Positions 7,855-61,999 are shown, counted from the first letter of the whole stretch. The stretch is DNA of 62,075 bases, filler included, from 15 parts of 15 records of this genome joined end to end with filler, not necessarily neighbours in it, one strand, 5' to 3'. Notes: generated from the sequence alone by a model not told the origin. Numbers and translations are program-made.

Positions 7855-8160
7855 NNNNNNNNNNNNNNNNNNNNNNNNNNNNNNNNNNNNNNNNNNNNTT
7901 AATTAATTAANNNNNNNNNNNNNNNNNNNNNNNNNNNNNNNNNNNNNNNNNNNNGGAGGTGGACCGACAGTGTACTACATGGCGTTAATTAGTACTATAG
8001 CTAATTGTACATAATTGACGATAACTAGCATGATAACTAGTCTACTACAGTGCCAGTGGACTGACTGAGTAGACTCTTACTGTACTTGTATACGTACTTG
8101 TACAAGTACTGAAGTTGAGGCAGTTGAGGTGTGGTTGGCCAGAGGGGCGTGCGTGCAGCG

Positions 8161-9623
8161 ATGCCGGCGGCTCGCGAGAAAGGCTACAAGGGCTGGATCC
8201 GAGTGAAGGACAAGTTCGGCGGCCAAACCTGGCAGCGAGCCGACCGCACCCACGGCGACCTCGACCACCACCCCTCCCGCGGCGGCTGGCGGCCGACCGA
8301 CGGCCCGAGCTCCGACCGCGACAACGTCTGGGTCTCATACGACGACGACGACGGCGATGTCCGTTGGGGTAACGGACACCAACGGCTCCGGCGGTCGACC
8401 AGCCCCCGGCGCCCGCCGAGGCGCCGCTCGCCGAGCCCGAGCCGCCGGTCAAAACAGGAGCACGGCGCTCGGCGGCCGGCGAGTCCGGTGCGGCAACGGC
8501 CGGGTTACGAGTTCTCGGCGGCGCAACGGAATGTGCAGGAGGCGGCGGCCGAGCTGGACGAGGTTGAGTTTTATTTATCCGAAGCCAACGCCTCCGGGGA
8601 TGGCGCGGGGGTGGCGGCGCTGGAGGGGATGGTGGGGGCGGCGCGCGAGCAGCTGGCGGAGGCGAAGGTGGCGATGATGGATTTGGAGGCAAGGGAGGCG
8701 GCCGCGGCTGTGCAGGCGGTGGAGGCTCGGGCGGCGGCGGGCGACTTCGTGGCTGGTTCGGAGGTCGAGGCTGCGAGGCAGAAGCATCGAAACGCCGTCG
8801 TGATGCTGGGAAACGCGCTCGGGCATGAGATGGCGATGGCGCCGTCCCCGCCGCCGGCGGCTGGGCTGGTGCACCACCACCACCCGCCGGCTGGCGTGGA
8901 GGTGGAGCATCTGCGGGCGGCGCTGGCTGCTTCGGAAGCCGACTCGATTATGGCCAAGTCAGCACTGCAGATGGCGGCGACCGACTCGGCGAGGGGTGCT
9001 CCAACGGATGTTAACGGAATTTAACGGCATTGTGGTAGGGGCGGAGCACGCGATGCAGCTGGAGGCCGAGCTCGGTCAGGTGGCGATTATCATTTAACGC
9101 TATTTTTAACGCTGTATTTAATGTTATTGATGTTGGATGGCAGGCCGTGAACACGGAGCGCGCTATGAGCGAGGAGCTGAGGTGTGTGGATTAGTGTCCG
9201 TTAACGCGGCGAGCCGTTGGGGCAGGTTTCTGCGGCAACGAGCGTGCGAGAGCTCGGCGGCTTTGATTTCGCTCACTGAGGAGTCTGAGGGCTTGCACCG
9301 GCAGGCGATCGAGGCGTCTATATATAGTACTTTACAGTACAGTGTGTAGTATATATACACACACTATAGTACTGTAGTACTGTAGTACTAGTGTACTGGA
9401 GGGGTCTGAAGGCTTGCACCGGCAGGCGATCGAGGCGCTGCACGACCTTGGCGTCCCCCCCGCCCAAGGCCCCCCGATGCTGATGCCACTCAGCCCGCCG
9501 CCGCCGCCAGGGTTGCCACCAGTCAGCCTGAGCGGCCCCCGAGGCCCAGACCCGGCAGAGATGGCGCGGAGGGAGGCCATAAATCAGCTGCAGCTCTTGT
9601 GTACGCACTTGGAAGGATATTAG
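8161..9623 (+). CDS. Hypothetical RS-rich/coiled-coil protein; 4 introns
   Basis: Introns at 8996-9038, 9080-9143, 9182-9225 and 9305-9425 (GC-AG) give a continuous frame ending LCTHLEGY*. Confidence 0.65.
9275..9437 (+). repeat. About 42-bp exon duplication flanking a 78-bp AT-rich quasi-palindromic insert
   Basis: actgaggagtctgagggcttgcaccggcaggcgatcgaggcg (9275-9316) versus actggaggggtctgaaggcttgcaccggcaggcgatcgaggcg (9395-9437). Confidence 0.92.
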
Positions 9624-9916
9624 CCCGTGGTAGTCTAGTAGAGCTATTATAGAGCTGTTACTGCAATACTGATCTATGCGCGGATGACTGAATACGGGAG
9701 CTTACTGTACTTACTAAAGACAGACTTAGTACTATGTACGTGTAAGCAACGGTTATGGCTTGAGCTTCTAAGCATGTATATTTTAATAACAACCACCAGT
9801 ATGCGATCACGCGCACCTGGGTCTTCATCCGCGCCCTTGTAAGCACTATTGTAAGTACATAGCGTGTTCTACAAGTCATGTACGACACCGGCGCCAGCGA
9901 AGCCGTCATGCGCTGC

Positions 9917-11028
9917 TCAGATCAGCATGTCGCCCTTCTCGTGAAAGTGCAAATCAAACAGCCGATGCACCTGACAAAAAGTCCGTTAATCTCCGTCGAA
10001 ACCCCGCCGCACACCACGGCGTGCAGTGCGCTGTCGAAGCCGTCCAAGAACTCCTGCTTGGTCACCACTTGGTCGCCGTCCGCGTCCAACTTTAGCATGA
10101 AAAAGTCGGTTAGCTGGCTCTTCACTTCGGTCTGCACAAAGTTGTTGTTCACCACCTGAAAACACCAAGAAAGTCCGTTAAAGTCTGTTGGTTTCTGTTA
10201 AAATAACCGCGCTCCGGAGCACTTGCTCGCGCTCGGCGGGTGAGAACGGCCAGTCGGCGATGATGTGCTGAAGCCCGTTGGCAAGAAACCGGTTCATGAA
10301 CCTGCGACCACCGGCATAATAATCAAATACTATATCTAATAATAATAATAATCAATTGATATTAATATAATCACCGGAGCGCCTCGTCGGAGCCCATAAC
10401 GCCGTCCTTGTTGGCGTCGTATTTCTTCCAAAGACCTTCCTTGAGCGCCGCACTCTCCTGTACAACCCCGCGCGCTCAGCTAATAACAATAACTACTACT
10501 ATTTACTATCATTAATCAATTAAATAAACCCACCTTGATCCATGCAGTGGCCGTGCCCATGTACTCCCCCGCCGGTTTCTTCGTCGCCGTGGCCTTCTCC
10601 GGCGCCGGCTCCTCCAGCGCCGCCGCCACCGACGCCATCGCCGCCGCCACCGCCGCCGGCCCGTCCGACGGGGCAGACGCCGCCGCCGGCTTGGGCTCCT
10701 TCAGGTGCTCTCGCTCAGGATCATTCATCGCCTGAAAAACGTCCGTTAACGTCCGTTAAAATCCGTTAAACAGCCCACCTTGAGTTTAGTCAGCCGCTTC
10801 TCTCTCTCAGCGTCGGAGGCTTCAATGTCCTCCTTCAGCTTGGCCACGCGGGCGGCCTCGGCCTCCGCGTCCTTGTGCGCCTTCCACTCCGCATCCTCCT
10901 TCGCCGCTCGCGCCGCCAGCTCGGCCGCCGCCGCCTCCGCCTGCCGCTTCTTGAGCTGAGCGGCCTCGAGCGCGGCTTTCTCGGCATCGGCCGCCTTTTG
11001 CTGCTTGGAGGCCGCGTGCAGCTCGGCC
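9917..11028 (-). CDS. EF-hand protein with an Ala/Glu/Lys coiled-coil N-terminal part (5'-truncated); 5 introns
   Basis: EF loops DANKDGVMGSDE and DADGDQVVTKQE. GT-AG introns at 10732-10778, 10458-10533, 10302-10374, 10156-10207 and 9971-10014 restore the frame; ends GDMLI*. Confidence 0.8.
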
Positions 11029-11128
11029 NNNNNNNNNNNNNNNNNNNNNNNNNNNNNNNNNNNNNNNNNNNNTTAATTAATTAANNNNNNNNNNNNNNNN
11101 NNNNNNNNNNNNNNNNNNNNNNNNNNNN

Positions 11129-14100
11129 GATACGGATCAAGATCAGGAATCTGATGAAAAAGAAGGCTGAGCGCAAGCAGAAGGCGACACCGGCTCCAAG
11201 CATAGCGCCTACTGCCATCCCGACTGTGGTACCAACAGCCCAGCCCTCCTCAACCCCGACTTCTGCAGCCCCAACAGTTGACCAGGCAAGCATTGAAAGA
11301 AAGAAGAAAAAGGACGTTGACGAGGCTGCAGCGAAGAAAGAGGCAACTCTTGAAACAAAAACAAAGGAGGGTGAGCAAAAGGAGGCTAAACAAAAAGCCC
11401 AAGAGCGCAAGCCGAAGGAGAAAGTCGAGAAGAATAGGCGTAAACAAGCTGTAGAGACGCAAAATAAAGAGGCAGATGAGAAGAAGCTTGAGCGGCTCGA
11501 GAGCAAGAAGAAACGCACTAAGGAGATCAATGAGAAAGCCAAGCAAAAGGTTGATGAGAAGAAGCACAAGATGGAAGAGAAGAAGGAAAAAATCACAAAG
11601 GTGATGAAGCGGAAGGCGATGCGCCTGCAGAAGGAGGCAAAAGAAAAGGCAGACGAACGAACCCCAAAGAAGGAGGGCGAAGAGAAAGCTGAACGAAAGA
11701 AGAAACGGGCCATTGAGGAGGCTGCAGCCAAGAAGCAGGCAGCGTTGGAGAAGCAGAGCAAGGAGGACGAGCAGAAAGAGACTGCACAAGCTGATCAGGA
11801 AAGCCGCGCGAAGGAAACAACAAAGAAAACACAGGAAAAGCAGGCTCAAGAGCGAAATGCAAAAGATCAAGTCGAAATCCAGGGGCAAAACTTGAAGCTC
11901 CAAGAAGAGAAATTGAAGAGCTCACAGCCTGTGACACCAGTCACCAAGAACGAGTATGACAAGGCACTCCAACTTCAGCGTGAAATGGCAGAGAAGCAGC
12001 AAGCAGCGGAGGCAAAGCAAAAGAAGCGCGAGGACCTCGACGCGAAGCGCATGTTGTCTTTAGAGAAGAATGGGAAAGCTCAGATGCAAGCAAAGGAGAA
12101 GAAAGACAAGCTAGCAGTGATCAGAATCAAAATGATGAAGATAGAGAATGACAGGAAAGAGCGCAAGGAGAAATGGTCCGAGCGCAGTCCTAAGAAGGAA
12201 AGCACTCGTAAGGCACTGGAGAAAAGGCTCACTGCAATGCAGAAGAGTTCTGCGGAGGAGCAGGCTGCCTTGATGAAGCTGTCTAAAGAGGCAAAGAAGG
12301 AGGAGGAGCAAGCTGTGCAGAGGCAGCGACAGGCTGCTGCTGTGGTACGTGAGGCGGAGGGTCGTGAAGCTGCAAGCAAAGAAGAGGCTAAGAACCAAGC
12401 TGTGGAAGGCCGGCGAAAGACTCAGCGACGGCAAGCACACGAAAAGAAGGTAAAAGATACAGTGCAAGAAGCGCGGGAACAAGCTAGGGAGAAGCAGAAG
12501 AAATACGAGTGGATTCAGTTCAAGCTCAGGCATCAGCAGGTCGAGGACGATGCAAAGGTCGAGCAAGGCAAAATTCGAAATGACAAGCTGCGAGAACAAG
12601 CCAAGGCTATGGAGAATTCGCTCAAATTTTCACAAAACAAAGTCTCCAAGTGGGAGTCAACAGCGTCAAAATATTCTCAAAGAGAAGCAGCTTATAAGCA
12701 AAAGATTGCTATATCGACCGCCGCTTCACAGAAGCAGGAGGTTGAGACAAAACTTGCCGAAAATACAGCTCACGAGACCCGAGCTAAGGCTCAGGCCGGG
12801 AGCTCCATGACCAAAATGCTAGTAGCAGCCCAGGCACGAGAGGCTATGCGGTTGCGGCAGAAGGAAGGAGCACTCAAACAGAAGCTGGCGTCCTTGTCAA
12901 GGAAACAGTACCGTGAGAAAGGTGCCAAGAAAGAAGCAAAGACAGAAGAGCAATGCGGCATAAGCAAAGGACGGGTGACTGCTATTCTCAGTGGAAAGAT
13001 TGTGTCAGGAGATAGCGACAGCAAATTCATCAAGGAGCTGAAGGTCGGCTATGAAGTGACAATTGCTGGGCAGCAATTCATTGTGACCGCTATCGAGTCT
13101 GAACAGACGTTCCGAATCAACTGTAAATTTGATGGCGATATCAGTGAACCTCAGATCATGAGGTATTGTAAGCGTCAGGCAGTCCTACCAAAGGTGGAGA
13201 TCCCAGAAGGCTTTGTCCAGATGGGTGACGCTGTTACCCGCACAATGACTTCTCGTCATGGCTGCACTGCAAGATTTTCAGTAGTGACTGCAAGCTGCGA
13301 TCAGGCTCCAATGAAGGGCGATTACTTTTGTGGGTGCAAAAAGGGCGGCTTGATCGCGCTCACTGCGAGCAGTGTCCGCACTGCCCATATTCCTGAATGC
13401 ACTTCTTGGTACTCTCACGCACTAGAGGTGCAAGAAGCTGAGAAAGTCAAAGCACTGCAGGGCCTGGCTCAGTTCTCAGCTGGCTGGGCTGAAACTTGTC
13501 TGGTGGGAAATTCCACTGAAAAGGAATTCAACAAAGAGCTTCCAGAACCCAACCGATGGTTACATGGAATGCGAAACCTGACCAATGGCTACATGTATGA
13601 CTGGGCACAGAAGCCGGTTCAATTGCCATATAAACACGAGGACAATGGCAAATTGATATGCCAATCGAATTTCGTTGTTGGAGTGGCTGTTTGCAATGCA
13701 AAGAAGCTTATGGAGAATAACACAGCATTGATTGGTGGTTTGAGCAGCGTGTTCCAGGGCTGTAAGGGCAAGCTGATGACATCAGAGCTCTATGGACAGA
13801 TTGTGTACATGCAGAATCAGCAGCCTCAGACCCAGCGGCTGTGTCTCCGTAAACACACTGAGTGGGCAAACGAGGCAGCCAAAGCCCAGAAACGGGTCTC
13901 AGAGACCTTGCAGACTGTGCTTGGCAAAATGACAAACTTGACTGAACCTGTATGTGAAGTGCATACAGTCAGTCAGAAGGATGCGAGGCTACTGGCTCAT
14001 GAAGTCAAGGAGCAAAGCGACAAGACTCAGGCTACTCTGAAGCATTACAGGGACCGCTCAGAAGCCCTTTCACTTGAGCTGGAAAGTCTGAGGAAAAAGC

Positions 14101-15701
14101 GATCGGTTGGTGAAAAGAAAATCAACCAGGAAATTCAAAAACAAAAGGCAAACGAGGCTCAGGAAAAGGACAAGCTAGAATCGACTGATCGATTTGAAAA
14201 GCCAGGTGAGGCTCATGCAATGCTACAAGCACAGGAGAAAGAGGCAAAGCAGTACCAAGTCCAGCTCACAGCAGTGCAAGATAAAGCAATGCGTGCAAAT
14301 GAGAATAAAATGCGCGAGCGGTTAGAGCACGTACAGAAGCTGCTGGTCAAGACAAAGGACATAGAAGCAGAAAAGAGAACAGTCTCTGAGAAGGAGAAGA
14401 AGAAGATCGAAAAGACAAAGATCACCGAGATTGAGGCTCAGGTCGACAAGATGGAAGATGAGGAGTGTACTGAGCAAAAAGTCGAGAAGGGTGTCTCAAA
14501 GGACATCAAGGCGCAGAAACAACGATTGAAGGGTACGATAAGAGCTGCGCAGCAGATGGAAGACGAGAAGGAGCAACAACATTCACAGTTCCAAGCGACG
14601 CTGACAAAGGAAAAGACTGATGCTGAAAAGGAGGCAAGAACCGAGAAGCGCAAATTTGAAGAGAAGCAGCACGAGCTGAGCCAGGCGAAGATTGCAATTC
14701 GTAAGGACTCGGAGAAGCAAAAGAGGGACAGTAAAGTGGAAATGGATAAAGCAGTGTCGCAAGCTAGGACCGAAGGAGCGCAAGAAGCCCAGCATCAGTC
14801 TGAGCAGCTGCTGGTAAAGCAGGAGAGAAACACCAAGAAGATGGAGAAGGAGATGATGGCTTCTCAACAAGTGTCCATCCAGCAGGCTGAGCTTAAGATG
14901 CAGCGCGAGATGCTGAACGAGAAGAAGAAGCTGGAGGCACTCCTAGTCAAGAAGGAGCAGGGCAATTCCAGTGCTGAGACGGATGCTAAGATTGCCCAGC
15001 TGCAGAAATTAGTGACTTCAACAGAGGAGCAGAATACTGTCGAGGCCGAGCTGAGCCGCACTCTAAAGCAGAAGGAAGCAGGGGTGAAGCAAGTAGAATT
15101 AAAGGCTCTTGCGATCAACAAACAGACTCTACAGTCTCTTGAACGTGATGAGCGCAAGAAGAAGAGCCGGCACCCAATCGAGCGCGCCGAACGGGCTGAG
15201 CAAGGGTACAGAGCCGCCGAGAATAAGGAGAATAGTAACAAGGCGAATCTCCCGGAGGTGAAGGTGAAGACGCAGGAGGTAACAGCCAAGCGTGGTGAGC
15301 TGTCCCGGCGAGCCAAGGGTCGTGTGGAAAGCATCAGCCAGGAGGAGGAGGAGTCCAAAGTCAAGCTGGAGCAGGCGGCTCGGACCCAGGCTCTTACCGA
15401 CGAGCAGCTCCAAAAGGAAAAAGCCAAGAATAGATTGCTGCGACACCAGCAGCAGAGGACAGCTGAGTTGAAGCTGGACAGCGAGCAAGGTGTTGCCAAG
15501 GTGATCCAACAGTTGCATGCCCTGCGCGGACATCTGAACTCGAGGAACACGACAGCAGAGGCGCTCGCACGTGGCGAAGCGATCTTGGAACACAATCGGA
15601 AGCATGTCACTTTGAATCACACAGGAAGACACCCGGATGACCGACTTGAGATCCGCCACGACAACGATAATAATTATAATAATAACCAAGATAACATTTA
15701 A
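11129..15701 (+). CDS. Giant intronless K/E/Q-rich coiled-coil protein with a PT-rich linker and central Cys-rich domain (5'-truncated)
   Basis: Uninterrupted ORF of more than 1515 aa with a strong purine bias on the coding strand. Confidence 0.85.
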
Positions 15702-25244: not shown

Positions 25245-28200
25245 TCCTGCACGCTTGGCAAAGAAGGCAGAGGCGATGAGCTTCGATGCTGGTGACGGTG
25301 ACGCGCCCAAGCCCAAAGCTGCTCCACCTGCACGACTGGCTGCAAAGCGCACCACCTCCAAACCCTCAGGCAACAAATCCGCTGCTGCCAAGAACAGCCC
25401 AGCTGACGATGAGCCCACGGGGCCACTGATGGACGATGACGCCTTGCAAGCTCAAGTGGCCGAACTGCTGCCAGCCGAAGCGATCGAGGGGCTGGCAAGC
25501 TCGGCCTGGAAAGAGCGCGTGGAGGCAGCAGGAGCTGTGCTGGAGGCCGTGGAGGCGATGGGCGAGGTGACGGGCGAGCAGTGCGAGGCAGTGTTTGTGC
25601 AGCTGTCCAAGAGCCCAGGCTTCAAGGAAAACAACTTCCAGGTGCTCAACAAAGTGTTTGAGATCTTCGCGGCTGTCTGCAGCAAGGTGGACCAGCTGCC
25701 CAAGCAAGTGGCCAACCTGCCGCTTGCCATCCTCACAGAGAAGAACGGGGACATGAAAGTCAAGAAGAACGCCTGCGAGTGCCTGCTCAGCATCGCGGAG
25801 GTGGCCGGCCCGCAGTTTGTGGCATCGCGCGTGTACAAGCACGGGCTGGGAGCCAAGAGCCCCAAGGTGACGGCCGAGGCTGCTGGCTGGGTCGCCACCT
25901 GCATCGAGGAGTTTGGGATGGGACACTTGACCACTGTGCCGCTGCTCGACTTTGTGCAAGGCCTGCTCGAGAGCACCAACCCAACAGTCAAGAAGGAGGC
26001 GCTCAAACTGCTCGTCGCGATGCGTCGATACGCCGGATCTGCGCTTTCGTCTGTGATTGCTGGCAAGGCTGATGAGATCAAGCCAGCGCTGCTCAAGACG
26101 ATTGAGTCTGAGATGGCCAAGGTGAGCAGCTCGGACCCAGTGGCTCAGGAGCCGACCCGACAAGTCCGGTGCTCCACTCAGGCTGGCAAGGGCAAGGGAG
26201 GCGGAGCCAGTGGCAGCGCCCCAGCAGCATTTGAGCTGCCACGGCAGGACATTAGCTCGCAGATAACCGCCAAGATGATCAAAGAGATCAGTTCGAGCGA
26301 CTGGAAGGAGCGCAAGGCGGCCCTTGGCGAAGTGACGGAGATTCTGACCAAGGCAGGCAAGAGTATAGAGCCCAACACAGGCGGCGAGCTGTTCCCGGCA
26401 CTCAAGCTTCGGCTGTCTGACAAGAATCAGTCGTGCCAGTGTGACGCAATCGCGCTCTGTGGTGACCTTGCCGAGTCAATCGGGGCTCCGGTAGCCCGTG
26501 AAGCCAAGATCGTGATGCAGGGTCTGTTCCAGTCCATCCAAGAGAAGAAGGCCCCCATCCGGGCCAAGGTGAGGCTCACTCTAGACCAGTGGGTGGCCGC
26601 CACCGGCATTGGGCCTATGCTCCGGTACGCTCCGGCTGCGCTTGAGGGAAACTCAGTTGATGGGCGGAAAGAGGTGCTGGGGTGGCTTGTGGCTCACACT
26701 GAGCTGCTCAGAAGCCCTGACGTTGATTTGGCTGACTTTGGCAAGTCCTTGGTGATTACGCTGCAGGATCGCGACGGCACTGTGCGCAAGCTGTCTGAGG
26801 AGTTCCTGGACACAGTGATGGCCCAAGTGGGCTACCAACAGATGGTTGACTTCTGCCAGGACCTCAAGCCTGCTGTAAAGAAGACCATCCTGGCTGTGGT
26901 CGAGAAGCATGCAGCATCAGCCGGTGCAACCCGAGCAGCCGAGCCGGCCAACAGCAGCGCCGACTCGCAGCGCGCTGCTCCAGTTGCCAAGAAGAAGACC
27001 CCTCCTCGTCGGAGCACTGCCAACCGGACCACTAGAGCTGGTCCGACCAAAAAGGCTGCCCCAGAGCCGGAGCCGGAGCCGGAGCAAGCGGCACCAGCGG
27101 AAGGCGACGCTGATTCTGTCGTCCAAATGTGCAGCTCGAGGGATAAGCAAATGCGTGCCAAGCGCGACAAGACTGCACACTGGAACCCGGACCTTGCACA
27201 CAAGGATAAGGATACACTGTCCGAACTGTCAGACAGCTTTGCTCCGTGCGTTGCTGCAGATGTACTCGAAAAGCTGTTCTCCAAAGATTGGCGGAAGCAT
27301 GTCGAAGCAGCCGAGATGCTGATTGCCGAAGTGCCTGGACACTTTGCGGAGTTCCAGTCATTCCTTGATCTGATCCTCAAGTATGCAAGCTTGCGGATAG
27401 CCGAAGGCAATACGAATGCCATGTCTAAATGGCTCGAGTTGGTTAAGCTGCTGTTCGAGCACCTGACTGAGGCCCAGATCGAGCTCACCGACCAGGAGCA
27501 CGGAATCTTCGTCCCCAATCTGGTCGACAAACTGGGCAACAACAAGGAACACGTTCGAACCATCCTGAGAGACTGTCTTGATCGGATCCCGAGCGTGGTG
27601 CCTCTCCAGCGCATCTACCCTTACATTGCTGATGGCCTCAAGAGCAAGAACGGCCGGTCGCGCGTGGCCTGTCTCGAGTTCCTCACCAGCTTGGTTGAGC
27701 AGCATCCGCTCAAGAGCGTCGCCCACCCTGGCAAGATTATGCCGATGCTTGCTGAAGTGATCAAATCGGACCGCGACCGATCAGTGGTCTCAGCAGGTCT
27801 CAATCTGATTTGCAAGGCGCATGTCGAGCTCAAGGACAACCTCTGGAAGGCGCTCGGTCAGATAAATGACAATCAGAAGGGTATGATATTGGACCGGATG
27901 AAGCACACATCCGGGAGTGTGCCCGCGCCTGCCGCAGAGCCTGCAGCCAAGCGACCCAGCACCACCAGCTCCAAAATGCGCCAACCTAGTGCAGACAACA
28001 AGCAAGCTAAGCAGACTACTCCGGCTAAGAGGTCCAAGACTCCCAAGAAGGTGCTGCGCGAGCCGTCCAGCAGCAAGCTCGAAAAGACAGCGCCAGTAGC
28101 ATCATCAATACGCAAACCTCTGACAGGCGGGCAGCCCTCAAAAGCGTCGGCAGTACCAGTGAGCACCTCTGGCAGCAACGAATCGGTGCTAGGAGGATCT

Positions 28201-29691
28201 GGAGTGACAAAGCGGTTCGACTTGGACCTTGGCCAGGTGGAGAAGACCGCTGCAGCTGCGCTGGATGAGTCGTCCACTCCGGCAACCAGCATGACAACCA
28301 CCGAGGTTCCTGCACACCTCCAAGCAGGCCTGCAGCAGGCAAGAGGCAGCCCGATCCGGGATGGACCAACGATGCTGCCCTCAGTATGGCTGCAAGAACT
28401 GCAGAACGACGACAGTGAGGCACGGATTGATGCCATGAAGGCAGTGAGCGACGCTGCTTGCCTGGAGCCTGGTACTGTGGTGCCGCTTGTGGAGCCTTTG
28501 ATGGCTGTGCTTGCTGAGCAGATCAAGCCCACGTTTGAGGCTTGCAGCCAAGGCTCGGCTCGGCTTTGCAAGTATCTGCTCAATACCCTGATGCAACTGT
28601 TCTCCAAGCCAGACATAGGCTCGGCAGTCTCGAGCGCCAAACTGACCACCGTCATCACGGAGCTCACATCGCAGATGCTTGACCCAGCAACCCTTGAAAT
28701 GACTGACGGCAAAAACATGATCAAAGCGCTCAACTTGTTGATGCTACGTATCCTTGACAACTGCAACCGCAATACCACCTTCTCTGTACTTGTCAAGCAG
28801 CTCGAGCCCACAGAGGCCAGCCAGCTCAGGCCGGGCGGATGCGAGCTGGTGGTGCGCTGCCTGCTCCGGTTCAGCAAGGGGCTGCAGCAGAACATGGACC
28901 AAATCGACCTCGACGCGCTGTTTGAGCAGATCCACAATTTCTTTGAGGCCAGTCCGCCCAAGAAGGCAGCCGAGGGAACTTCCGAGGCTATGGTGGCGCG
29001 TACAATAAAGACGATTGTGCACGAGGTGGTTCGAATCAAGGGAGTCGAAGTCAAGCAGCACTTGTCGCACATACCAGCCCCTGACCAGGAGAATCAACCG
29101 TTGCTGCTCCAGTACATTGATCTGATGCTAGACAATGTGCAGACCGACTGGAAGCAGTATGCGGCTGCCAACAAGGCCATCCTGAGCTCACCCAGCCTGA
29201 CACCGGCCGCTGACCAGCAGATTGAGGAGAATTCGGAGCCAGCCCAGCCTGCAGCGAGTAACCTGAGCGACTCGCCGGCCAAGGCTCCGAGTCAGGTGGT
29301 CAAGAGCTACACCTCGCGGCTGCAGGCGCTCCAGTCCAAGTACGGGTTCAAGGCGGAGAGCGGCGACTTGCCAGCAGCCACAATCGACAGCTCAGCCACG
29401 CTGTCTGAGACTGCCAAAGCCCCGATCAGCTCAATCACGGAGCAGTACCAGGGCCGGCTGCAGCAGTTGCAGCAGCAGTACGGGCTGGCCGTGTCGAGCA
29501 CACCACAGAAGGCCCCGTCCACCCCATCGGCAAATCTGGATGCGCTCAAAGCCCGGATGCAGGCAATCGAATCAAGTGGTTCCAAGGAGGGGGCTACAAA
29601 CAGCAGTGAAGGTAATAAGAGCTCGCACTCATCGATTGAGGAGCTAAAAGCTCGGCTCAACAAGGTCAAGTCTGCTGATGTGAGCAGTTAG
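25245..29691 (+). CDS. CKAP5: XMAP215/ch-TOG/MOR1 microtubule polymerase (5'-truncated, intronless)
   Basis: TOG-domain hallmarks SSAWKERVEA, GFKENNFQV, SSDWKERKAAL, LFSKDWRKHVEA and GLKSKNGRSRVACLE; C-terminal KALNLLMLRILDNCNRN. Confidence 0.95.
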
Positions 29692-55225: not shown

Positions 55226-57916
55226 TCAAACCTTGCGAGCCGCAGGATGCACCGCAGCACGCTGTTTGTGCGCTTCGAGGTGCTCGGCCGACCACAGCGA
55301 CACGCCCAGCTGGTCCTGCATGCTGCGTTAGGAGCCGGGCAAAGGGCACAGGACCTCCTTGAGCAGTGGCTGCGCCATCTCACGGAGGAAAGTCTTTGTG
55401 ATCATGAGCGCCTCGTCGCTCGACAGACTTTGATCGCCCTCCAGAAGCGTATCCCTCACCCACTTTGGCAGTTTGTCCCGCTTGTCGCTCCGCGAGTAGC
55501 GCTGATCGGCCAGCACCATGATCCCGTAGTCGGCCTTGGAGCGGACTACCCGTCCAAGGCACTGAGACGCCTGCCTAATGGCGTCGAATGTAAGAAAGTC
55601 GCCCTCGGAGATCTTGTGCTTTTCGCGCATGTAGGCCAGCCGCGCCTTGAGCACGTTGGACTCCGTGTACTGAAACGGCACTCCAATCATCACCACACAC
55701 CGACCATAGTGCCGGTCAAAATCTATCCCCTCAGCCACCTTGCCCCTAGCCACCTGCCTCTCGCTCAGCCTCTCACCGGCACCAACAGCTCACCGAGAAG
55801 AAGATCGCTCCACGACCGCTGTCGCACGCCCGCCGGTAGTTTTGAAGCGCCAGGGAAGTCTCGAGCATGTCGGTGGTTTCTATAAATAAGATCTTGTTTG
55901 CACAGATCTTCTCGAGCGCATGTGTCTTGTGCCACTCATTTATGATCTCCTCCATGTATCTATACGAAGTGAAGAAGCACACCATCCCATCCGGCACGAT
56001 TGCTGTCAATTCAATAAGCAGATGCGCGTAATTATTCACCACCGCCGCGTCACTTCGCACCTCAAATTTGGTCGATATGGGCACCTGATCGCTCCCACGG
56101 GCCACGATTACTGGGTGAATACAATTGCGTGAGAGAGACATGGGGAGAGACTTGGCCACCACAGGCCGGATCCCGAGGATTTTCTCATAGAACCCAATCG
56201 GCGAGAGCGTGCCAGAGGTGATGACCACAGACCGAAACTTCTCAAGCACCGGCTTCATAGCCAACGAGGCGTCGTTACAACACAGCTGGAGCACAGGGTT
56301 TGGCACGTTCGGGTAGCGCTCGTCGATCGGTTCGATTATCACCGCAAACCCCTCCGTGTAGGTACCCACCTGTGGCCGATCAGGCGCGCCAGCGGCGGGC
56401 GGGCACCAGCGTGGCGAGGTCGGCTACCAGGTTGATTGGCGTGAACTCGTCCATATCGGCCACCTCCAGAGTCTTGAACAAAGTCGAGAGCAGCGACGAG
56501 CAAAACCTTCCAACCCGCTGCGGCCGGTCCGGCACCCGTGGCACCGTAGCGTACGAGCATCCACCCCGCCGACAGCCGCCCCAGTCTCTGTGTAAAGCCG
56601 CTGTCGGAACTCATTCTGTCTTTCCACTCAGCAGAGGCGTGCAGGCGGGAGCATACCGGGGTCTCCTGGGTGAAGCTGACCGAGTGTAGCCGGTCTTTAA
56701 GGTGGTACACCACCCGGCGCATCACCGAGATAAAGTTCTGGGCCTTTCGAATGTTTCCCGGGATCGCCTCCTGGATTAGGTCCGGCGTGAGCACAGGGTT
56801 CGCAAACACTGTCGGATCCGTCCCCGAATTGCCGCTAGAGAGGCCCTGCAGCAAGCTCTGGAACTCATTCCGGAGCCGCTGCTCGTCTAAAGATCGAGCC
56901 TGGCCAGCCGTCAGCGGGCCATTGGCCAGAGAGCTGCCTTATCAACTTCTGAGGAAAGCTTGGACAGATTGGCCGAAGCGCGGCTGAGCGTCTGTTGGTT
57001 GACGGCCACTGTCATGACCTCAATGCACACGTTGTCTATGTTATGGGCTTCGTCAAACACCACCTGCGCTGCCGGTGCGCCCGAGCCGTGCCCCGGCTGT
57101 CACCACAGAATTGTCGCACAGTTCCCTCGATATCAGGTTGGAGATCTTTGGGTCCAACACATACTGATAATTATACACAATTATATTCGCCCGCGCCATC
57201 ATTCTGCCCCGGGTCACCGGCGCCCGAGCCGCTGGCAGCACCGGCGGGCCAGAAAGTAGGGGCATATCGCCTTCTGCTGGCCATATGCTTTGATATCCGC
57301 CAGCGAAAAGCACCCCAGCGGCATTGCCCCGTCAGCCCCTAGCTCCTCGAGATCCTCATAGAACGAGCACACCGGCACCGAGCTGTCGCGCGCCTTGGCC
57401 TCCCGCACCCACGGCGCGGTCAGATTCCGGCATTGGGCGTCGCACTTCTCGCGCTCCGAGTCTGCGCTCACCGTCGGATGGATGCACATGTTTCTCCGGG
57501 ACGAGAGCCCGAGCGCCAGTGTGGCCGGGGCCGGGCCGCCGAGCTCCTTTGCCCGGTACTCGACCACCACCTTGGCCTCCTCGAGCACCTTGTCAATCTC
57601 CGGGACAGTCCTGGTGCAGTACACCAGCCGCGAGACCGCTGGGTTGGCCGCCTGGTAACTGGTGATCAGGCTGAGGATCGTGACGGTCTTCCCAGTGCCT
57701 GTGGGCATCTGCCAGCCCCTGTCAGCCCCAGCCGGGCTCCGGGCCCACCTCGAGGCAGGCGTGCCCGCCCTGGGCGCCGCCGGTGGTGTTTGTGGCCCCG
57801 ATGTTGGTCTGCCCGGCGTCCAGCGCCCGCTTGAGCTCGAGCATGTAGCTGTACTGCTCCGGGTACACGTAGTCGTACGGGAAGAGCACCTCCAGGTCCT
57901 CCACCATGAACCGCAT
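55226..57916 (-). CDS. ERCC2: TFIIH helicase XPD/Rad3; 9 introns
   Basis: [75 protein letters not shown]. Introns at 57709-57748, 57204-57241, 57064-57103, 56900-56937 (GC), 56616-56656, 56507-56544, 56370-56406, 55754-55793 and 55316-55354. Confidence 0.97.
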
Positions 57917-58101: not shown

Positions 58102-61100
58102 GAAGAAGGCGGCAGCAGAAGAGGCAGAGCTTAAGAAGGTCGAAGAGGCGAAGGAGGCCGCATCTCAGGCCAAGGCAAAAGCTGAAGCTGATGCAGAGAA
58201 AGTTGGTACAGAGGCCACAGCAATCGAAGGAACTGACGACGAGAAGGCTGCGGAGGCCACCACAAAAGCAAAGGAGGCACAAGCTAAAGCTAACGAGGCT
58301 AAGGAGGAGCAGGCCAGGGTTGAAAAAGAGCAAGAGGAGGCCAAGGCTGCCGTGATGAAGGCCGAGGCGGAGGCAAAAGCAGCAGATGCGAAACGAGAGG
58401 CGGCCAAGAAGAAGGCGGTGGAAGAGGAATTGAAGCTTAAGAAGCTTGAGGACGCTAAGATAGCTGCGGCTGAGGCGAAGACTCGTGATGACGAAGCTCT
58501 GATTAAAGCTAAAGCTGAAGCCAGTTCTCAGGCAAAGAAAGCAAAGAAAGCAAAGGTCGCAGCAGATGCAAAGAGCTCGAGTGCAGGCACAGCAAAAGCG
58601 GCAACGCAGAAAGCGGAAGAGGATTTGGAGAGGAAAGCTGTACAGGAGTCCCAAGCTGAGGAGGCCGCAAAGCAAGAGCGGAAGCGAGTCAAGCAAGTGC
58701 AGGCAGCGGAGGCTAAGGCTGCAAAGATGGAGCAGGCCGCTGCTGAGGCAACTGCCGCTGTACAGCAGACAAAGAAAGACCAGGAGAGGCTTGCAGCAAA
58801 CGCTGAGGCTGCTGCCAAGCAGGCGCAGAGTGCAGTTGAAAAGGCGCAGGAAGACAGGCAACAAATACAGGTCGCAGCGGCAAGGGAGAAAGCCGCAGCA
58901 ACCCAATCAAGGGCGGATGCAAAGCTCAAGGTAAAGCAGGCAGAGGAGGTCAAGAAACAGACCGAGGCCAAAATCGCCAAGGCTGAGGCGGACGCGGCAA
59001 AAGAGCACGCAAAAGCCAAGAAAGGTCAAGAGAAGGCTCTGGCGCAAGTTGCCGAGAAGAAGGCTGAGGATGTCAAGGCAGAAAAGGTGGTCAAGGTGGA
59101 GCTCTCTTCCGAGGAGCTCGCAGCTGCAGCCAAGACAGCAATGGTGCTGGCATTCAAGGCCACGGTGCAAGCTCAGGACGCCGCTGAGTCGCATCACACG
59201 CTAGCCAAACAAGCGAGCAGCGACACAGCAACACAGCGTGACGTGGAGGCTGAAGCGCGTGCTGCAGTCAGGTCTCGCCAACTGTCGCGCGCAGCCCAGC
59301 AAGCACAGGATGATGCGACCAGAGCAGTTGCGAGGGCGCGCGCCTCTGCTGCAGACCAGGTGAAAATTCAGCACGGGGTGGCCGGACTGGCGGCTCTAGC
59401 AGCTGCGCCGGTCAAGACTTCCTCAGTCGAGGTGCAGCGAGCTAAGGAGACGAGCAAGCTGCGGACTGAGGAGGCCCATCAGGCCACTGCTGATGCAGCA
59501 AGGGCGGTGGAGGCAGTGAGCCGAGCCACGCTCAAGCTCAAGCAGTTGGAGGTCCGAGCTCGCTTACCAGCAGCTGCTGAGAAGCTCAAGATCCAAGCAG
59601 TCGCGATGACAGCTCAAGTGCAGGAGATGCGCGAGAGTGCACTGGGACTGGTGGGCAAAGCTGAGGCGGCGAAGCGGACAGCCAAGGAAGCAGCTGCAAG
59701 AGCGCTGGCCTTGAAGCGGCGGTCGGAGGAGGTAGCGCTCCGGTCAACTGTGGCGCAGGAACAGATGCTTGCCAAAGCCGAGTTTGAGCAGGAAGCCGTT
59801 GAGAGGAAGCGGCTGGCAGATTTGGAGGGAGCTGAAGTCAAAGCACGGACAGAGGAGGACAAGGCGAGTGCACAGGCTGCAAATGCTGCAGCTGTCCAGG
59901 CACAGGTGGCGGCCGCTGCGGTCAAGCGTCACGCTGCAGCCACCGCTCAGGCAGCTGAAAACGCCCGGAGAGCTGCAGCCACAAAGGCGGCAAAGGCTGC
60001 TGCGGCGGCGACACGAGCTGCAGACGAGAAAGCCAAAGCAGCTGCTCGGTTGCAAGCTGCAAAGGACGCCGTGAAAGCAGCAGCGGAGGCCCAGAAGCGT
60101 ATTGGGCAGCAGGCAAGTGAGGTGGAGCAAAAGTTGATCAAGTTGGACACAGCCAAGGACGCAGCGGCGGACGCGGCTATGATGGCCAAGGCCGAAGTGA
60201 AGGCCAGCTGCGGGCGAGAATCATCAGCCAAGTGCATCACTGCCAAGCGCAAGTTCAAGAAACTGGAGGCCGAGAGCAAGAGGGTGGAGGAGGAGATGAA
60301 GCGGGCCACAGCCGAGCAAGGTGCCCTGACTGAGCGAGCAGCCAAGGCAGTCACAGCAATGAGTGAAGCTGTGGCGAAGCAGCAAGCTGCAGAGAAGCGG
60401 GAGTCTGATGCAGTCGAGGCGGCAGTTTCGTCGCAAGAAGCTGCATCGGAAGCTGCAGCGGACAGAGAGACAGCAAAGGCGCAGGCACAGCAGGCCCATG
60501 CTAAGCATCAAGAGGCGAGTGCTGCGCACGAGCAGACAGCGGCGACAGAGGGCCAGCCACCAGTCAACACTCAGCTCATCTCAGACCACATTGCCCAGAT
60601 TGCCGCGGCCGCAGCTCAGAATGCTGAGCAGCAGTCACTGGCTGAGTGTGAAGCACGGGCAGTGTCCGCCCACCAAAGCGCAGAAAAAAGCGCGGAGGCC
60701 TCGATGAGGGCATTCGAGTCGGATGCCAGTTCGGCTTCGGAGAACGAGGCGGCAATTGCACATCGGCAGGCGGTTCTGGACAAGTTGATGCAAGATCGCA
60801 AGGAAGCGAGCGATCAGTGCAAGGTAGCCGCCCAACTAGCTGGCGAGAGGGCGCGAGGCGAGCTCACGTCAGTGGCCCACGAGATCGTGCAAGTTGTCTC
60901 GCAGGCCGCTGGTGGCTCCGCTCCGCTCGCACTAGCCATCCACGACGCGGCGCTCGCCTCAAAGACTGCCGCTGACCAGGCTCGGGGCCTGAGCGAGCTG
61001 AATGCGCGCGCAACGGCCAAGCTGCAGGCGGTGCAGGCTGCGAGTGGCGTCAAGCTCAAGCAGGCCGTCAAGCACGCCGTGGAGGCGCAGGCGGCATATC

Positions 61101-61999
61101 ACATGCAGCAAATGATGGTAGACGAAGCCCGTGCTGAGCTCGCCCCGACTCAGGCCGAAGTGGACTCAGACGTGGAAAAGGCGCAGAACAAAGCCGCCGC
61201 GCTCGTCTCCGCGGCTGATAGCGAGGCGGCCGCGGCCAACCAGCGTGCCAATGACGCAGTGAAGAGCGCCAATCTAGCAGTGGATGCGGCCAAGCGGAAA
61301 GCCAAAGTGAGGATCGAGCAAGAGTTGGCGGATGAGCTCACCCGGATCAAGACTGAGAAGGAGCAGGTGAGACAGAAGGCGCAGCTCGAGATGGACTCGC
61401 TCAGTCCGGAGCTGACTGGCGATCAGATCTTCGAGCAGGAAAGGACGATCAAGACAGCCCGCGACAAGGTTCTGGCTGGGATCGAGAGTAAAGCGGAGCA
61501 CGCTAAGAAGCTGGCTCAGGAGACACAGGATCGGTTCTGCGACAGACTCGACCAGCACCATGAAGCGCTGCGCAGGGTGGCGCAACTCACGGCTGCCAAG
61601 ATGAGCAAGAGAGTGTCAGAAGCCAAAAGGAAGGCGCAGGCGCTCGTGCGCAAGAGCCGGGACGAAGCCAAGGCAGAACTGATCAAGGCGTCTACAGGGC
61701 TAACTGCGAAGGAGGCCAAGAAGCATCAGCTGAAAGAAGCGGCCGAACAGGCTGAGGAGCTGCTCGAGAGCATGAAAGCTAACGTCAAGGCTGTCCAAAA
61801 GGCAGCTGGTCAAAAGGAAACCGCAGGATTGGCTGGGCGGCGGACTGCATTGCGAACCAGTGCTCTCAAGGCCAAGAAGCTAGTTCGCGCGATGGAGCAG
61901 GAGCAGAGCAAGCAAGAAAGCCAAGTGCGGAAGGTGGAGGATACGTTCGAAACCATGATGAATGTCGAGACGTCGATGGCCTCCGAAGAACAAAGTTAG
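58102..61999 (+). CDS. Giant intronless Ala/Lys/Glu-rich coiled-coil protein (5'-truncated)
   Basis: Open frame from the contig edge to TAG at 61999, with a helical low-complexity composition. Confidence 0.85.

Follow-up and report, generated by a model that had tools for sequence, protein, structure and literature searches.

A duplicated stretch of coding exon around an AT-rich insert: a candidate young intron in an uncultured marine eukaryote

The contig, the host gene and its established introns

The DNA analysed here, called the window throughout, is a stretch of 62,075 bases that consists of 15 contigs of 3.0-5.4 kb, joined by spacers of the form N44-TTAATTAATTAA-N44 (e.g. at 7855-7954 and 11029-11128). 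Because separate contigs were joined, statements about "the genome" that are drawn across contigs are unsafe. The source is an uncultured marine eukaryote. The only sequencing run that contains part of the stretch is the marine metagenome DNA run X1 (share 0.17), and two further runs of the same metagenome study contain next to none of its words; the genes of the other contigs are plainly eukaryotic and include, based on Pfam, NAT10, XPD, TOG-domain, sulfatase and ankyrin proteins. Three of the ORFs on these contigs are very long and uninterrupted (11130-15698, 25246-29688 and 58103-61996, all on the plus strand, with 1523, 1481 and 1298 codons, respectively). The first encodes a Lys/Glu-rich product without a Pfam family on a strongly A-skewed contig of 49.6% GC, the second an XMAP215/CLASP TOG-domain protein, and the third again a product without a Pfam family.

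The structure described below, a repeated exon segment with an insert between its copies, sits on contig 7955-11028, which carries one plus-strand gene (the host gene) and, converging on it, a minus-strand gene that gives weak EF-hand signals. Their features are the following:

8161-9623, plus strand: host gene, an orphan, from the ATG at 8161 to the stop codon TAG at 9621-9623, delimited by three-frame translation and frame continuity
8161-8995, 9039-9079, 9144-9181, 9226-9304 and 9426-9620, plus strand: exons of the host gene, the boundary between exons 4 and 5 being the candidate splice
9426-9620, plus strand: last exon, 65 codons, conserved in a wild relative
8996-9038, 9080-9143 and 9182-9225, plus strand: host introns 1-3, all of the form G/GTG...AG/G, each with TTAACG
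10778-10732, 10533-10458, 10374-10302, 10207-10156 and 10002-9971, minus strand: the five GT-AG introns of the convergent neighbour gene

The host gene gave nothing significant in Pfam. In the protein search, the sole homologue of its exon 1 was P0001, an ORF of a wild relative (93% identity), and the C-terminal ORF 9378-9620 used as a query returned no candidate. The antisense ORF 9321-9701 had 0 matches among 1.84 billion representatives, and the comparison of exon 1 with the JGI metagenome loci yielded 107 pattern matches, none of which was confirmed. An Rfam search of the contig returned solely mir-1268 at 8888-8943, a match at chance level (E 0.5; 22.8 bits versus a gathering score of 83).

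The eight established introns of the contig are 32-76 nt long and all GT-AG, with no GC donor among them. In all eight, the donor is preceded by a G and the acceptor is AG/G (CAG/G in seven). Six of the eight contain TTAACG(G), in one to three units, which is probably the branch motif, or else marks an intron family; the intron 10533-10458, which does not have it, carries CTGAG about 18 nt before its acceptor. The relative's intron 1 (8996-9038), through which P0001 reads, shows an insertion of 6 nt close to the 5' end and retains the TTAACGG stretch, which fits a functional motif.

The same words set the contig apart within the window. TTAACG/CGTTAA occurs 13 times on contig 7955-11028 versus 0-2 times on each of the other 14 contigs, and AGTACT seven times versus 0-2 per other contig. 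The contig may stem from another organism in the bin, or it may represent a distinct intron class.

The direct repeat, the insert and the reading frames

Between exon 4 and the end of the host gene, the contig displays the following features:

9278-9316, plus strand: copy 1 of a 39-nt direct repeat, encoding EESEGLHRQAIEA; it reaches 9275 when one gap is allowed
9399-9437, plus strand: copy 2 of the direct repeat, identical to copy 1 at 37 of 39 positions
9317-9398, plus strand: AT-rich insert between the copies, 82 nt, or 78 nt on the gapped reading
9326-9381, plus strand: insert hairpin of 56 nt, from DNA/RNA folding
9341-9365, plus strand: near-palindrome in the insert, read from the sequence
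9363-9402, plus strand: four 8-nt tandem units, from a repeat search
9384-9397, plus strand: second small hairpin in the insert, from folding
9305-9425, plus strand: best candidate intron, 121 nt, phase 0, CAG/GCGATC...CCGGCAG/GCG
9406-9411, plus strand: CTGAAG, a putative branch site with A9409 16 nt before 9425, read from sequence only

The two copies are spaced by 121 nt and share an exact core of 27 nt (9290-9316 in copy 1). They differ at 9282A/9403G and 9289G/9410A, and an alignment with one gap, which adds an extra G at 9398, extends the repeat to the ACT at 9275/9395, giving about 42-43 nt. An earlier note on this DNA, made from the sequence, had described an exon stretch of about 42 bp that occurs twice around a 78-bp AT-rich, hairpin-like insert, and both figures are recovered on the gapped reading. 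When the contig was shuffled 200 times, the maximum for exact direct repeats spaced by 30-800 was 14 nt (mean 10.3), versus 27 nt observed; in the whole 62 kb, one other repeat of at least 16 nt was found in this spacing range, with 17 nt. The repeat and its insert are thus real and far beyond chance. All three differences between the copies lie upstream of 9425, as the earlier note had stated in placing them in the intronic part of copy 2; because this placement has a chance probability of (30/43)^3 = 0.34, it carries no evidential weight.

The insert hairpin has a DNA folding energy of -17.7 kcal/mol (z -2.06; 7 of 200 shuffles were equally stable), and the RNA fold of the full 9305-9425 segment has a z of -2.16 (5 of 200 shuffles equally stable). 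The insert has neither a TTAACG motif nor terminal inverted repeats: the inverted-repeat arms (9326-9381) are internal and its ends are unpaired. Further copies of the insert were not found in the window, where just 9-10-mers at E >= 3.4 came up, its 26-nt core had 0 exact matches in metagenome_contigs, and Rfam gave no match on it. Its vocabulary (GTACT, TATA, ACAGT) resembles the intergenic DNA of contig 7955-11028. Two contigs from another run of the same metagenome study, X2 (records 5 and 6), are about 88% identical to 9367-9401, the part with the 8-mer repeats, and continue as a GTAGTACT-like satellite; an 8-mer repeat of this type is therefore present at other loci of the community.

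When exon 4 is read through into the insert, an in-frame TAG is met at 9347-9349, in agreement with the earlier note, which had placed the end of the unspliced frame at 9349. Another frame runs open from 9378 up to the TAG at 9621-9623, and the frame of exon 4 joins that of 9426-9620 only if a segment of 3n+1 nt is removed. The motif CAGGC lies inside the 39-nt repeat at 9302-9306 and again at 9423-9427. Removal of 9305-9425 would give ...TEESEGLHRQ/AIEALHDL..., open to the TAG at 9621-9623, and would leave precisely one copy of TEESEGLHRQAIEA. The splice proposed in the earlier note, from CAG/GC at 9305 to the CAG ending at 9425, does therefore take out 121 nt and restore one in-frame copy, but it is not the sole solution, as enumeration yielded 72 frame-keeping GY-AG pairs. 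Among these, 9291-9411, 9305-9425 and 9314-9434 would produce an identical mRNA, all three with GC donors, and several GT-AG pairs (9342-9411, 9344-9425 and 9316-9385) keep the frame while adding 9-17 residues. Splicing of the intron 3 donor straight to 9425 or 9434, worked out by hand, runs into a stop and was rejected.

The candidate intron shares the G/G...CAG/G context of the local introns; at 121 nt it would be the longest on the contig, the sole one with a GC donor, and it contains no TTAACG. When scored with a short splice-site matrix trained on the eight introns, 9305-9425 ranks 2 of 72 with 8.0 bits, within the range of 4.5-16.1 bits obtained for the real introns by leave-one-out scoring. 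With a longer acceptor matrix from the same eight introns it ranks 13 of 72, and none of the candidate pairs looks like a local intron, the highest candidate sum being 3.8 bits versus about 17-24 for the self-scored introns. With eight training introns, neither matrix result is strong. The CTGAAG at 9406-9411 lies at a plausible branch distance and may serve as a branch site. The change from G to A at 9410 in copy 2 turns GAGGGC into GAAGGC and shifts the AG by one base; it also creates an in-frame acceptor at 9411, usable with the donors at 9291 (GC) or 9342 (GT).

The wild relative and the case for splicing

Run X1 contains contigs of a wild relative. One of them, 1,986 nt long, corresponds to 8107-9352 and differs over these 1246 nt at 69 positions, with 18 gap letters in addition (about 94.5% identity); it crosses copy 1, continues through 36 nt of the insert and ends near the centre of the palindrome. 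Two ORFs in the protein collection, P0001 and P0002, stem from a Logan contig of 1,986 nt. The latter agrees with the translation of 9185-9346 at 53 of 54 positions, among them TEESEGLHRQAIEA and the ten residues that the insert encodes ahead of the stop, and ends at the same residue as the TAG at 9347-9349. A second contig of the relative resumes at 9482. As the relative's contigs span 8107-9352 and then 9482 onward, the independent support concerns the left junction, from copy 1 into the insert. The presence of this junction in an independently assembled relative means that it is no private assembly error and that the event predates the split of the two strains. The difference between copy 1 and copy 2 (2 of 39 positions, 5%) is similar in magnitude to the divergence between the strains.

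Over 9482-9621 the second contig shows 4 differences and 0 gaps, so that this part is better conserved than the remainder (4 of 140 versus 69 of 1246 and 62 of 1314). Directly after the stop codon, the 84 nt at 9622-9705 are replaced in the relative by 110 unrelated letters. Since conservation ends directly after the stop, 9426-9620 looks translated, in which case the 121 nt, or some 3n+1 part of them, would be removed; this is our main argument for splicing. The relative's intergenic DNA realigns from 9706 with many indels, and 9622-9705 is a hypervariable patch between two convergent genes. Taken together, these comparisons indicate a structure that is real, older than the split of the roughly 5%-divergent strains and probably spliced.

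How far the evidence speaks for this particular splice depends on how several other readings of the same DNA fare. An assembler might have produced the duplication, or the join between the insert and copy 2, out of mixed strains: the source is a fragmented, metagenome-type assembly with contigs of 3-5 kb, and the break of the relative's contigs at 9352 and their return at 9482 point to a region that is hard to assemble, with an unverified right junction. Such an artefact is nevertheless very improbable. The earlier note had named misassembly as one finding on which its reading would fall, and the left junction is instead found again in the separately assembled contigs of another strain; with just 27 exact bases in common and differences at three places, the copies are not collapsed or duplicated k-mers, and the end of the insert and copy 2 overlap the exon by about 4 nt, which should be too little for a mis-join in the assembly graph. 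A real but unspliced segment, in turn, would leave a protein truncated at 9349, either as a tolerated C-terminal truncation or in a decaying gene, with 9426-9620 untranslated. The atypical signals (the GC donor, no TTAACG, weak matrix scores) agree with this, as do the orphan status of the host gene, which has no known domains, and the relative, whose identical insert-encoded residues and stop would fit a truncated protein; by our own estimate, sequences that diverge by 5.5% would by chance agree fully over 33 nt in about 15% of cases. We consider it distinctly unlikely, because the best conserved part of the alignment, 9482-9621, is free of indels and the alignment breaks directly after the stop, both of which are hard to explain for an untranslated tail; moreover, the ORF 9426-9620 stays open in a stretch of 72-78% GC. 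Removal of the segment by splicing of some kind is therefore likely.

Splicing might use other boundaries, in which case the mRNA would not be restored to a single copy. The GC-AG pair 9314-9425 would add the residues AIE, the GT-AG pairs 9342-9411 or 9344-9425 would add 9-13 insert-encoded residues, and the GT-AG pairs 9316-9385 or 9316-9391 would leave both copies translated, as a 13-residue protein duplication with a linker. With 72 frame-keeping GY-AG pairs there is ample choice, and the short matrix puts 9314-9425 first while the long one puts 9342-9411 first; a GT donor is what all eight local introns use, both copies stand in the same codon register of their respective frames, with the change at 9410 synonymous there, and some introners are described as adding codons to the transcript (PMC9860276). 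We nonetheless regard these boundaries as unlikely: the GT-AG pairs inside the insert do not have the donor-preceding G and the acceptor-following G found in all eight local introns, they rank 41 and 54 of 72 with the short matrix, and CAG/G at 9425 is the best acceptor with this matrix. The GC-AG splice 9305-9425 remains our preferred form of the intron.

The earlier note had gone further in proposing that a tolerance of GC donors eases this route of intron gain and that the route feeds a high intron density. Neither proposal is borne out. None of the eight contig introns has a GC donor, and the lone GC-AG intron supported by homology lies in the XPD contig, which may belong to another genome than contig 7955-11028, so that GC-donor tolerance is unsupported for the host. 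Concerning density, a second such repeat is absent in the 62 kb and none of the eight other contig introns has junction repeats, so that the claim, with a single case in 62 kb, is unsupported. Of 16 comparisons made for junction repeats in these eight introns, one gave p 0.026 and the rest p >= 0.10, which is chance level; for this reason, the idea that the GC-rich 3' ends of other introns are decayed duplications was rejected.

The GC-AG intron of the XPD contig is well placed by homology. It lies in the XPD/ERCC2 gene (55300-57915, minus strand), is 38 nt long (56937-56900) and reads AAG/GCAGCT...CCAG/GCT. On the GC-AG reading, the exons on either side match the solved chains of human XPD, yeast Rad3 and a third helicase in exact collinearity: residue 42 of the query aligns to chain residue 272 and residue 1 of the next exon to 273. 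With the GT alternative, three residues are lost. The gene's remaining introns are GC-rich, measure 38-40 nt and carry CTGAC/GTGAC about 13-17 nt before the acceptor. With its different intron style, the XPD contig may come from another organism than contig 7955-11028.

Proposed origin and comparison with known systems

The reading that we favour, with a probability of about 0.5, is that of a young spliceosomal intron in GC-AG form, which would have arisen in a single step through DNA repair within a coding exon. The exon would have suffered either a staggered break or a pair of close nicks at a distance of about 39-43 nt, and the filling-in of both overhangs would have duplicated the exon piece GAGGAG...GAGGCG. 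The ends would then have been joined with 78-82 nt of AT-rich, self-complementary and 8-mer-repetitive filler, possibly by use of an ACTG microhomology. As the duplicated piece contains CAG/GC, the same exon motif would have come to stand at both ends, and a splice from CAG/GC (9305) to CAG (9425) would remove one repeat period (121 nt) and return the original frame and protein. Staggered-break repair, with a target duplication and a filler, is the best fit because most of the intron is foreign insert; a plain tandem duplication is excluded because a repeat-insert-repeat arrangement needs added junction sequence.

More tentatively, and with somewhat less than an even chance, we suggest that this single repair event made a working intron with all its parts: the 39-43-nt target duplication would have given the donor, the acceptor and the branch-like site, and the hairpin filler would have given the AT-rich body and would bring the splice sites together. 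The gain is read from the repeat alone, since no intronless allele or orthologue, such as the earlier note had suggested looking for, was found: in the only relative that came up, copy 1 is likewise followed by the insert.

Intron gains recent enough to show the underlying mutational event in their sequence are few; here, the duplicated target and the filler are both visible. The splice required is fully predicted (junction 9304/9426), and an uninterrupted ...TEESEGLHRQAIEALHDL... exon in a distant orthologue would prove and date the gain. The case bears on the question of whether an accident of repair is able, in one step, to give rise to a working intron whose GC donor is non-canonical.

A different source of the same arrangement would be a small non-autonomous mobile element, an introner or MITE-like hairpin, whose unusually long target-site duplication supplied both splice sites. 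The hairpin architecture of the insert would suit such an element, and similar 8-mer repeats of the GTAGTACT type were seen in further contigs from that metagenome study. Introner-like elements of Polarella are described as taking both splice sites from an AGGH duplication, GC donors included (bioRxiv 10.1101/2020.10.14.339549), and Florenciella elements as co-opting both sites (PMC9860276). An element of this kind is improbable here, given that no second copy occurs in the 62 kb, an exact search of metagenome_contigs for the 26-nt core came back empty, the inverted repeat lies within the insert and not at its ends, and the duplication measures 39-43 nt versus the 3-9 bp given for introners (PMC9860276).

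The comparison with introners nevertheless reveals likenesses with the repair-made intron that we favour. In the Polarella classes 13 and 14, the AGGH duplication is reported to supply both splice sites, GC included (bioRxiv 10.1101/2020.10.14.339549), and the splice sites from duplicated AGG(H), the unchanged mRNA length after splicing and the marine protist hosts would all be shared with the present case. Introners are, on the other hand, described as occurring in families of many copies, with duplications of 3-9 bp and frequently with terminal inverted repeats (PMC9860276), whereas the structure on contig 7955-11028 is a single copy in 62 kb whose duplication measures 39-43 nt and which lacks terminal inverted repeats.

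In Daphnia pulex, neointrons carry repeats that are attributed to staggered double-strand breaks (PMC4202315). As in these, an insert of untraceable origin lies in an exon, and adjacent exon bases are repeated at the far end of the intron. The Daphnia repeats are given as 4-12 bp (PMC4202315), unlike the 39-43 nt found here, which are long enough to hold both splice sites; the Daphnia introns are also described as presence/absence polymorphisms with RNA support, while the present insert is common to a relative of about 5% divergence and no insert-free form was seen. If the ranges given in these sources hold (the introner class tables may list longer target duplications), the 39-43-nt duplication would exceed the repeats of introners and of Daphnia-type introns tenfold in length.

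Parallels for the proposed repair step come from laboratory systems. The fill-in of complementary overhangs, down to 43 bp, is reported to give small tandem duplications (PMC8355091), and the integration of DNA in Ostreococcus tauri to give a 518-bp target duplication together with 55-83-bp fillers of unknown origin (PMC8002553). The present structure would resemble the former in that the length of the duplication equals the distance between two nicks, and the latter in its filler; both sets of events are described as laboratory events without a link to intron creation.

Intron gain by tandem duplication has been reported for vertebrate ATP2A1 (PMC3265369) and for potato RdRp and 24-bp repeats in fission yeast (PMC4974935). 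In these cases splicing is described as experimentally demonstrated; the present intron is a candidate from sequence, and its donor would be GC instead of GT. As in the tandem-duplication (Rogers) model, a duplicated exonic AG/GY would supply the donor and the acceptor, one repeat period would be removed, and the protein would be unchanged, with phase and frame kept. In the model as set out in these sources, however, the intron consists wholly of duplicated exon, or of exon plus old intron, whereas here 39-43 nt are duplicated and 78-82 nt are foreign and AT-rich. The earlier note had proposed an intron born by tandem duplication of AGGY: the exon repeat with CAGGC at both ends agrees with this, but 78-82 of the 121 nt are not exon-derived. 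Judged from the sequence, the structure is therefore most likely a hybrid of the tandem-duplication and break-repair routes and not a classic AGGY duplication, and, if true, it would be a natural intermediate that joins the two models and is legible in two wild strains.
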